Virus record (IMG/VR): IMGVR_UViG_2778261591_000002
Span: 1-11,141 of that record
DNA: 11,141 nt
Direction: 5' to 3' (one strand)
Origin: a virus
Lineage: Duplodnaviria; Heunggongvirae; Uroviricota; Caudoviricetes
In this document: one piece after another, positions 3,845 through 4,000 of the stretch
Layout: every line of letters starts with the position of its first letter
Numbering within the stretch: the first letter of the stretch is position 1
Notes under the pieces: model-generated
Seen by the model: only the letters and a program-made list of their open reading frames with translations
Told to the model about the DNA's origin: nothing
The model's database searches: none
Translations under genes and position numbers: made by a program

Positions 3845-3919
3845 GGGTCAGTCGTATAAAGGTCATTACGGAAGGCTGTTAACCTTCTTATCGTGGTTCG
3901 AGTCCACGCTGTCCCGCCA
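3845..3919 (+). tRNA. tRNA-Asn (anticodon GUU), CCA encoded
   Basis: Manual cloverleaf: acceptor GGGTCAG/CTGTCCC (one T-T mismatch), D-arm with GG loop, perfect anticodon stem GAAGG/CCTTC, loop CTGTTAA (anticodon GTT 3878-3880), T-arm CGTGG-TTCGAGT-CCACG, discriminator G, CCA 3917-3919. The T-loop TTCGAGT matches E. coli tRNA-Asn. Two stem mismatches lower confidence. Confidence 0.6.
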
Positions 3920-3924
3920 AATAT

Positions 3925-4000
3925 GCTGGTTTAGCTCCAATGGTAGAGCAGTCGCCTTGTAAGCGAATGGATAGCGGTTCAAGTCCGTTAACCAGCACCA
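3925..4000 (+). tRNA. tRNA-Thr (anticodon UGU), CCA encoded
   Basis: Manual cloverleaf: perfect acceptor GCTGGTT/AACCAGC, D-arm GCTC-CAATGGTA-GAGC, anticodon stem 4 bp plus a G-A at 27:43, loop CTTGTAA (anticodon TGT 3958-3960), T-arm AGCGG-TTCAAGT-CCGTT, discriminator A, CCA 3998-4000. Confidence 0.7.

Follow-up and report, generated by a model that had tools for sequence, protein, structure and literature searches.

The 11,141-nucleotide (nt) stretch analysed here, positions 1 to 11,141 of IMG/VR virus record IMGVR_UViG_2778261591_000002 (hereafter the window), carries two adjacent transfer RNA (tRNA) genes, one for tRNA-Asn(GUU), one for tRNA-Thr(UGU), in the leader of a phage late operon. 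From our analysis, we propose that both are functional tRNAs of a phage lineage and the first elements of the late transcript, and that they supplement the supply of their isoacceptors and replace a host tRNA removed by a common Escherichia coli defence; we give this reading a probability of roughly 0.6.

The mechanism that we propose is as follows. The late promoter PR' would fire constitutively, with most transcripts ending at the terminator tR', 4 nt before tRNA-Asn. Once the antiterminator Q has been made, RNA polymerase would pass tR', and each late transcript would give one tRNA-Asn(GUU) and one tRNA-Thr(UGU). Host enzymes would release them, ribonuclease P (RNase P) acting at the 5' ends and endonuclease and exonuclease trimming proceeding to the encoded CCA. 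The cell would thereby gain more of two tRNAs that phage genes call on more heavily than host genes do: in the host, ACA is read by Thr(UGU), which has a single gene copy, and the phage uses this codon 3-6 times more; Asn(GUU) would serve an Asn demand about 1.3-1.45 times that of the host. When the OLD protein of a P2 prophage depletes host Thr(UGU), the phage tRNA-Thr, insensitive to OLD, could take its place, as has been shown for the copy in phage HK446 and as we infer for that of the window.

Two genuine tRNA genes of a phage lineage

Across the whole window, ARAGORN called exactly two tRNA genes, both on the + strand. The Rfam tRNA family RF00005, with a gathering score of 29 bits, matched both at full length (model positions 1-71) with the scores given in Table 1, and both are genuine tRNA genes, far beyond chance. 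An earlier note on this DNA, made from the letters alone, had read a tRNA-Asn(GUU) gene and a tRNA-Thr(UGU) gene at these positions and had named ARAGORN as a check; ARAGORN and Rfam agree with it, and the 3' CCA that it described is indeed encoded in both genes.

The features expected of working molecules are present. The anticodon loops, CUGUUAA in tRNA-Asn and CUUGUAA in tRNA-Thr, are both 7 nt long with U33; the T-loops read UUCGAGU and UUCAAGU, respectively, and so fit UUC(R)A; and both D-loops have G18G19. Known identity elements are G1-C72, C2-G71 and UGU for threonyl-tRNA synthetase and GUU and G73 for asparaginyl-tRNA synthetase. The tRNA-Thr of the window has G1-C72, C2-G71, A73 and the anticodon UGU, and tRNA-Asn has the discriminator G73 and the anticodon GUU. 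Unusual bases are C14 in tRNA-Thr and C9 in tRNA-Asn. Judged by these features, both are probably functional tRNAs.

A single mismatch, G27.A43, is seen in tRNA-Thr, and two are seen in tRNA-Asn, U4.U69 (acceptor stem) and U13.U22 (D stem). The earlier note had counted two stem mismatches in tRNA-Asn and suspected a partly degenerate gene. The mismatches are real, but because they are fixed in every copy examined they are no sign of decay. The gene is identical in 38 of 44 loci, 100% identical in phages 21, Sf6 and HK446, and invariant across genera, and a degenerate tRNA-Asn was ruled out. In the same 44 loci, the usual polymorphisms of tRNA-Thr lie at the unpaired positions 26, 45, 47 and 59, and both paired-site changes of the most divergent haplotype turn Watson-Crick pairs into G.U. 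Since the genes are too conserved for covariation within the family to be informative, the spread of polymorphism over paired and unpaired sites was used instead. The invariant tRNA-Asn, the position of the tRNA-Thr changes and the preserved pairing together suggest purifying selection on both tRNAs.

The anticodon loops are those of host asnT and thrU, and the anticodon stems differ from the host's at four of five pairs in each molecule. The tRNA-Asn of the window has C39, U41 and A16 against U39, C41 and U16 in asnT. For tRNA-Thr, positions 27-31 read GUCGC against ACUGA in thrU, positions 39 and 41 are both G against U39 and A41, and the D-loop is CAAUGGUA against AGUAGGUA. Overall identity is 54/76 (71%) between tRNA-Thr and thrU and 48/76 (63%) between tRNA-Asn and asnT. 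Because the bodies are of phage type and four of five anticodon-stem pairs are changed, the window tRNAs are not merely extra host copies. Recent capture from the host was ruled out on these identities, the host asn genes having no BLAST-level similarity.

A mosaic module behind the late terminator

The cassette of 156 base pairs (bp) formed by the two genes and their spacer is 98.7-99.4% identical in phages 21, Sf6, SfI, BTP1, Kapi1, mEp506 and HK446 and in many Salmonella P22-like phages. Its spacer is polymorphic, being AATAT in the window and AACAT in many relatives. The full-length tRNA-Asn gene is present in 369 of 5,426 complete E. coli genomes (about 7%). In a collection with one genome per species, the 33-mer core of tRNA-Asn was confined to Escherichia sp., E. 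albertii, Shimwellia and a pair of short contigs from gut metagenomes.

Q has 598 relatives in IMG/VR, and we compared the slot behind tR' in 80 loci of that collection, each with a Q protein that matches the window's at 97% identity or more. About half of the 80 have the Asn-Thr pair exactly as in the window and about half have no tRNA; a few have Asn alone, Asn with a different second tRNA, Asn with Thr and Gly(UCC), or a deleted Asn/Gly chimera. Conservation of the left flank reaches window 3844 and that of the right flank begins at about 4002; in between, the pair is cleanly swapped for segments of 158-301 nt. The T-tract of tR' is the left recombination junction: in HK446 the homology starts exactly inside it. 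The cassette of HK446 stands behind a Q, PR' and tR' of lambda type, and that of phage 21 stands with a pinholin lysis module, so that the place right after tR' is kept behind two Q/PR'/tR' types and two lysis modules. On the evidence of these alignments, the tRNA pair is an independent mosaic module, and a dispensable one, because about half of the phages with near-identical Q lack it.

Two kinds of variant were met in this slot. A three-tRNA form (loci L048, L057, L060 and L086 at 3781-4014; L096 at 5473-5706, from E. albertii) combines the phage tRNA-Asn with a chimeric tRNA-Thr and a Gly(UCC) that is 71/75 identical to host glyT. The chimera is phage-like in its 5' third and thrU-like in the remainder, with a weakened anticodon stem; ARAGORN misses it and Rfam gives it 49 bits. 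Loci L044, L061 and L063 are deletion derivatives with a chimera of Asn 5' and Gly 3' parts. In the host, thrU and glyT share one operon, and the three-tRNA variant looks like a product of recombination with that thrU-tyrU-glyT operon, as far as the alignments tell. The other kind, seen in locus L047 (3161-3229) and in the phage L / ST64T type, whose cassette is 89% identical, has as its second tRNA a derivative of the Thr gene with an altered anticodon arm. Its loop is CCUAAGA, its variable loop is short and its acceptor stem is of Thr type; ARAGORN makes no call and Rfam gives 42 bits. The phage L paper reads the tRNA with this loop as 'Leu UAA'; because of the short variable loop and the Thr-type acceptor stem, the amino-acid identity of the L047-type tRNA is doubtful.

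Codon demand and supply

To the earlier note's suggestion that the pair supplements late-gene decoding, the codon comparison that it had proposed gives an answer that differs for the two members. On a complete, closely related prophage, we compared 19 late genes with 41 ordinary K-12 genes and with 30 genes for ribosomal proteins and elongation factors. ACA occurs at 17.1 per 1000 in the late genes, against 5.5 in the ordinary genes (Fisher p 2.5e-12) and 2.9 in the ribosomal-protein and elongation-factor genes (p 1.1e-14). Asn codons occur at 49.9 per 1000 in the late genes, 37.9 in the ordinary and 34.3 in the ribosomal-protein and elongation-factor genes, that is, at 1.3-1.45 times the host level. 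When 40 anticodon classes are ranked by the ratio of phage to host demand, Thr(UGU) stands 5th, Gly(UCC) 6th and Asn(GUU) 10th; AGA/AGG and AUA are the top-ranked excess codons. The host-like Thr and the Gly(UCC) of the three-tRNA variant thus answer codons of high excess too. By absolute excess, Asn(GUU) with +12.0 per 1000 and Thr(UGU) with +11.6 are both within the top four. The host gene dosage is unequal: in E. coli K-12, thrU is present in a single copy and asn in four genes. Codon supply thus accounts strongly for Thr(UGU) and moderately for Asn(GUU); with four asn genes already in the host, additional tRNA-Asn should be of less consequence.

It is possible that supply is the whole function, the pair serving codon usage or dosage for the AT-richer phage genes, with insensitivity to OLD having arisen incidentally while the tRNAs diverged for a long time among phages; we regard this as a less likely alternative. 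The 3-6-fold enrichment of ACA fits it, as does the high codon excess of Thr(UGU), Gly(UCC) and Asn(GUU) alike. The divergence from the host extends over the whole molecule and is not focused on nuclease contact sites, and the three-tRNA variant amounts to plain extra copies, with its glyT-like Gly(UCC) and a Thr whose anticodon arm is of host type. What speaks against supply alone is, first, that Asn supply is already high in the host, with its four genes, and that early genes share the ACA bias (16.7 per 1000) and are translated before the tRNAs would be made. The literature, in the SfI genome and phage L papers, takes the codon view, but the SfI authors themselves found no Asn bias. A further objection comes from the OLD system described next: over-expressed thrU fails against OLD where the HK446 copy rescues, and because of this the sequence difference has a measurable fitness consequence in P2-carrying hosts.

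Replacement of host tRNAs cut by defence nucleases

A preprint of July 2026 (bioRxiv 10.64898/2026.07.10.737580, hereafter the OLD preprint) reports that P2 OLD is a Toprim tRNase that restricts lambdoid phages. OLD cuts after nt 27-29, and the tRNAs that it depletes are Thr(UGU), Gly(UCC), fMet, Val(UAC) and Pro(UGG). According to the OLD preprint, plasmid-borne tRNA-Thr(UGU) of HK446 restores plating of HK97, HK542 and Bas34 under OLD to near wild type, and expression of E. coli thrU gives no rescue. The HK446 cassette is 155/156 identical to that of the window and its tRNA-Thr 75/76, the sole difference in the latter being A47 in the window and G47 in HK446. In the region of the OLD cut, positions 27-29 read GUC in the window tRNA-Thr and ACU in the host. 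From this near identity with the HK446 copy, the tRNA-Thr of the window is probably insensitive to P2 OLD as well. The earlier note had put forward a replacement for host tRNAs cut by nucleases as one idea; it gains substance for the Thr member through the HK446 copy and P2 OLD, and is not supported for the nuclease that the note had in mind, colicin E5.

A second nuclease bears on both members of the pair. AriB of the PARIS system (P4-like satellite, E. coli B185) has Lys(UUU) and Thr(UGU) as substrates and Asn(GUU) as a secondary one; it cuts inside the motif U36-A-A-U39-C40-A/C41, the break falling between nt 40 and 41. In mutants of tRNA-Lys, U39A abolishes cleavage and A41C and U16C impair it; AriB also needs further contacts outside the motif, which are unmapped. 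Phage T5 needs its own Lys, Thr and Asn tRNA variants to neutralise PARIS. PARIS and OLD both restrict lambda. Thr(UGU) is accordingly an isoacceptor depleted by P2 OLD and AriB, and Asn(GUU) one depleted by AriB. At the AriB determinants, the window reads UAAGCG in tRNA-Thr and UAACCU in tRNA-Asn, both with A16, against UAAUCA and UAAUCC with U16 in the host. The resistant tRNAs of T5 are substituted at these positions as well, and the window tRNAs have diverged from the host everywhere: for nt 39-41 of Thr and Asn, T5 has GCA and GUU, the window GCG and CCU, and E. coli UCA and UCC. The genes themselves are non-homologous (49/76 and 48/78 identity), and T5 is a virulent phage with 24 tRNAs, unlike the phage of the window, which is temperate with two and has no tRNA-Lys. 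These substitutions suggest that tRNA-Asn may have a role against AriB.

A dedicated counter-defence would go further. The cassette would then be kept mainly against Toprim tRNases of P2 prophages and P4 satellites, in lambdoid and P22-like phages and convergently in P1, with codon bias secondary: tRNA-Thr would stand in for the host tRNA that OLD and AriB destroy, tRNA-Asn would be an AriB-resistant replacement, and the slot after tR' would be a hotspot for translation-rescue RNAs, including unrecognised alleles that resemble tRNAs or the tag region of transfer-messenger RNA (tmRNA). We consider this conceivable but less likely than our proposal. It would explain tRNA-Asn; the same Asn-Thr combination is found in P1; the HK446 Thr copy resists OLD; and the window tRNAs are altered at the AriB determinants like the resistant T5 tRNAs. 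However, Lys(UUU), the prime AriB target and needed for rescue, is absent: a tRNA-Lys(UUU) completing the AriB target set was sought in the slot and found in none of the 80 loci, and neither the window nor the whole related prophage has Lys(UUU), Gly(UCC), fMet, Val(UAC) or Pro(UGG), which leaves the full nuclease target set uncovered. The tRNA-Asn of P1 and the chimeric Thr of the three-tRNA variant keep the sensitive UAAUCA motif, AriB makes contacts outside that motif, and late expression is poorly timed for protection. Most tRNAs are estimated to lack U39, and if that estimate is right, two diverged tRNAs that both lack it are weak evidence. The missing Lys(UUU), the late timing and the host-like variant cassettes all speak against a pure defence role.

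Colicin E5, which cuts in the anticodon loop, is a very improbable adversary. The idea that the pair is a decoy or replacement for tRNAs cut by E5-type nucleases came from the earlier note and is not supported by the comparison with the host: the anticodon loop of the phage tRNA-Asn, CUGUUAA, is the host's own, and because of this identity the phage molecule shows no sign of evading a loop-cutting enzyme and should be an equally good E5 substrate. Thr(UGU) is no target of E5, and colicins are not triggered by phages.

We therefore return to our proposal that functional phage-lineage tRNAs supplement supply and replace a depleted host tRNA, and several points weigh against it. Expression and aminoacylation at the window locus are predictions from sequence. 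The ACA and Asn codons of the early genes and of Q (one ACA and five Asn codons in Q) are used before the late transcript is made; because of this, tRNAs made late should be unable to protect early translation unless tR' is read through. About half of the phages with near-identical Q do without the cassette, the variant cassette has anticodon arms of host type, unlike nuclease evasion, and with four asn genes in the host extra Asn supply is of little weight. The SfI genome paper reports no Asn codon bias. The remaining points come from the OLD preprint: OLD depletes further tRNAs, namely, Gly(UCC), fMet, Val(UAC) and Pro(UGG); a single viral tRNA-Thr rescued neither lambda nor OLD toxicity; and the natural OLD resistance of HK446 is credited by the authors to the protein Oad2. 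The rescue assays in that work used plasmid expression, outside the native late leader, and the stability of a phage tRNA-Thr was followed on northern blots only for Bas32.

Some observations on related phages touch the OLD system, and those on the UTAK-1 prophage speak for our proposal. In the prophage of E. coli UTAK-1 (NZ_CP157165.1), which is 99.4% identical to window 1706-11141, an unannotated open reading frame (ORF) between erf and kil (L087 16495-16650, minus strand) is a homologue of Gp33; it is 86.5% identical over 52 amino acids to the Gp33 of HK446 and HK75, a reported OLD trigger (this one prophage was checked). The Oad2 homologue of the UTAK-1 prophage is 54% identical, the same level as the HK75 allele that is reported to be insufficient against OLD. 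For two P22-like phages of the BASEL collection, CurroJimenez with the cassette and Huey without it, the paper's text gives no phage-specific Old phenotype.

Known relatives of the cassette

The Asn-Thr cassette of the late leader is already known, and no new annotation category is needed. Annotation as tRNA-Asn and tRNA-Thr is found for the pair in phage 21, in Sf6 (Sf6t01/Sf6t02, 'similar to phage 21') and in E. coli genomes of RefSeq. In 2013, the SfI genome paper described the tandem pair downstream of Q, noted it in Sf6, ST64T, PS3 and phage 21, found an ACA bias and called the significance of tRNA-Asn unclear; the phage L paper placed the Asn and Thr tRNAs of Sf6 here and proposed codon supplementation. 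In phages 21, Sf6, SfI and BTP1, the cassette is 98.7% identical over 156 bp, with tRNA-Asn at 100%, and the position after tR' and before the lysis genes is alike. All that sets the window apart from them is A47, a minority allele in the tRNA-Thr variable loop, and one spacer base (AATAT vs AACAT). The HK446 cassette (L090 1501-1656, NC_019714.1 35097-35252), in which both tRNAs are called, lies about 200 nt from the promoter, behind its lambda-type Q/PR'/tR', unlike that of the window. The GenBank/RefSeq record of HK446 annotates neither tRNA, and the OLD preprint says that HK446 encodes 'a single' Thr(UGU) tRNA, with the adjacent tRNA-Asn unmentioned.

Phage P1, also a temperate coliphage, has a tandem of tRNA-Asn and then tRNA-Thr, in the order of the window and in another context (after dmt). 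Its tRNA-Thr is 83% identical to that of the window and also has G39, and its tRNA-Asn is 59% identical and keeps the host-like UAAUCA motif. P1 is unrelated and its Asn gene is not homologous; the shared tandem hints that the combination has been retained convergently. Tandem tRNA genes in this slot have a further parallel in the Shiga-toxin lambdoid phages, which carry ileZ-argN-argO upstream of stx, between Q/PR'/tR' and the lysis genes. The logic there is the same, rare-codon tRNAs in the late transcript, and the isoacceptors differ from Asn and Thr. As a side observation, GCACAACAGGTAAGGG stands directly 3' of the P1 tRNA-Thr (the P1 pair is L119 1425-1600, OP279344.1 65398-65573); with GCACAACAGGTAAGGG also begins the structured element of lambda type that lambdoid relatives have in place of the tRNAs.

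That the pair has to do with integration, either as compensation for a host tRNA gene broken by the prophage, as the OLD preprint suggests for HK446, or as an integration target, as the earlier note had considered, is scarcely credible. Many lambdoid phages do enter tRNA genes, and tRNA-dependent lysogeny is known from other phages. The cassette, however, lies in the late leader, far from the attachment site (att). The attP of HK446 matches thrW (Thr-CGU), another isoacceptor than Thr(UGU), and the integrase gene of the UTAK-1 prophage adjoins fliE, with no tRNA gene at that end. Expression behind tR' would, moreover, be minimal in a lysogen.

Other RNAs in the same slot

The alleles that fill the slot in tRNA-less relatives (among loci L007-L086, at about locus 3077-3380) are 158-301 nt long, as in L038 (3077-3242), L017 (3775-3976), L007 (3077-3288) and L011 (3077-3376). 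All begin with TTTGCACAACAGGTAAGAGCATTG and have in common a long outer helix, GCACAACAGGUAAGAGCA...UGCUCUUxxCGUUGUG, whose insert varies. The pairing GUUGUGGUG/CGCCACAAC closes a second domain, with a compensatory change to GUUGUGCUG/CAGCACAAC in other forms, and CCAAA follows. In the 212-nt allele, GCTCAATGGCGAGC resembles a D-arm and GCCGGTTCGATTCCGGCCGCCACAACCCA a T-arm plus acceptor; the L038-type allele presumably resembles the lambda leader after tR'. None of the slot alleles of the tRNA-less relatives gave an ARAGORN call or an Rfam family match, save a 16-bit hit to a tmRNA model. Inside the outer helix of the 299-300-nt allele, L014 (3104-3150) and also L032 have a core that looks like a hammerhead, CGCGC CUGACGA GUCC-AUGAG-GGAC GAA ACGC-AUUA-GCGU C/GCGCG, with stems II and III closed and stem I open. 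Although it appears canonical by eye, no Rfam hammerhead family matches even in permissive mode, and a hammerhead ribozyme in L014 and L032 was rejected.

These alleles bear on another possibility, that the tRNAs act mainly as an element of RNA processing or stability, RNase P or RNase E sites freeing the late mRNA from a 5' leader that holds a pause site and the terminator hairpin, with decoding secondary. The slot is always filled by structured RNA, and the tRNA-less alleles, with their length of 158-301 nt, long conserved helices, T-arm-like and acceptor-like ends and the hammerhead-like core in two loci, are in keeping with it. However, both tRNAs have intact, conserved anticodon loops, identity elements, T-loops and CCA, the HK446 Thr copy acts by replacing a decoding tRNA, and the hammerhead-like core is unrecognised by Rfam. 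We consider this possibility unlikely.

Two further elements were seen at or near this place in related loci. A nearly invariant module of about 150 nt (TTTTTTATTGGCGAAATC...) lies directly after late-operon terminators in L078 (3086-3316) and in L098-L117 (20 IMG/VR contigs). It contains AAAUGCAAACGAUGAGCAAUUCCUGGCAGUAGCCUAA, which reads A-N-D-E-Q-F-L-A-V-A-stop and resembles the SsrA tag ANDENYALAA. In this module ARAGORN found no tmRNA, the Rfam family beta_tmRNA gave a sub-threshold 18.8 bits (E 0.043), and the match to E. coli ssrA is at most 11 nt; the module may be an unrecognised tmRNA-like element of phages, or the likeness may be a coincidence. The second element is an insertion of about 710 bp right after the -10 hexamer CATAAT of PR', ending just before the leader sequence GTAAGCTGCC, in L010, L012, L017, L020, L023 and others (locus about 3020-3730). 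It encodes a putative protein of 173 amino acids that by eye resembles an HNH/AP2-type homing endonuclease, and it shifts tR' to about 760 nt from the promoter. In HK629, an HNH endonuclease is annotated between Q and the holin gene.

Locus context

The window is a mosaic segment from an E. coli phage of P22-like (Lederbergvirus) type; the phages closest to it are CUS-3, vB_EcoP-720R6 and Kapi1. Its features around the cassette are collected in Table 1.

Table 1. Features of the late-operon leader and its surroundings in the window
Feature	Coordinates	Strand	Evidence
Q antiterminator gene, phage 21 / Sf6 type	3263..3781	+	ORF; homologue annotations
Late promoter PR', TTGACA(3759) -18- CATAAT(3788)	3759..3788	+	Promoter scan, 11/12 matches
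Late-leader intrinsic terminator tR', hairpin + T7-A-TTT	3797..3844	+	RNA fold; homology
tRNA-Asn(GUU), 75 nt	3845..3919	+	ARAGORN; Rfam RF00005 55.3 bits, E 5.9e-10
5-nt spacer between tRNA-Asn and tRNA-Thr, AATAT	3920..3924	+	Sequence
tRNA-Thr(UGU), 76 nt	3925..4000	+	ARAGORN; Rfam RF00005 61.5 bits, E 1.2e-11
Conserved lambda-type late leader, cassette to holin start	4001..4242	+	Alignment of relatives
Lysis genes: holin 4243-4566, endolysin 4550-5026, Rz-like spanin 5023-5460	4243..5460	+	ORFs; UTAK-1, Sf6 annotations

The Q homologue is annotated as 'antiterminator Q family protein' in the UTAK-1 prophage and as 'similar to phage 21 Q' in Sf6. PR' overlaps the 3' end of Q, and alignment with phage 21 puts its region in exact register with the pR', Q-binding element and start site annotated there; the repeats ATTAGCCA/TTTAGCCA (3769-3784) are placed where phage 21 has its Q-binding element. 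By this homology, late transcription would start at about 3795, and the repeats would form a Q-binding element. The hairpin of tR' (3797-3835) has a folding energy of -21.1 kcal/mol (z -4.59), none of 200 shuffled sequences being as stable, and is followed by T7; it is homologous to the annotated late terminators of phages 21 and Sf6. tRNA-Asn begins 4 nt past the T-tract, at about +51 of the late transcript. On the other side, homology among relatives resumes at about 4002, and the late leader is 95-99% identical whether or not tRNAs are present. The lysis genes, with a holin of the lambda family, are the first protein-coding genes 3' of the tRNAs, with a gap of about 240 nt to the holin gene. 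The fold of tR' and these alignments bear out the placement given in the earlier note, which has the pair in the leader of the late operon, past the late terminator and ahead of the lysis genes. Farther upstream, window 1-1705, which includes most of an ORF for 355 amino acids (491-1558), is unmatched in the UTAK-1 prophage, and its boundary is, on this comparison, a mosaic junction in the nin region.

Significance

About 7% of complete E. coli genomes hold a cassette whose tRNA-Thr is nearly the molecule shown to defeat P2 OLD, which gives that tRNA gene a concrete fitness role beyond codon bias. Its tRNA-Asn, whose significance was 'unclear' to the SfI authors, is an AriB-cleaved isoacceptor that differs from the host's at mapped AriB determinants. 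[quoted passage not shown]

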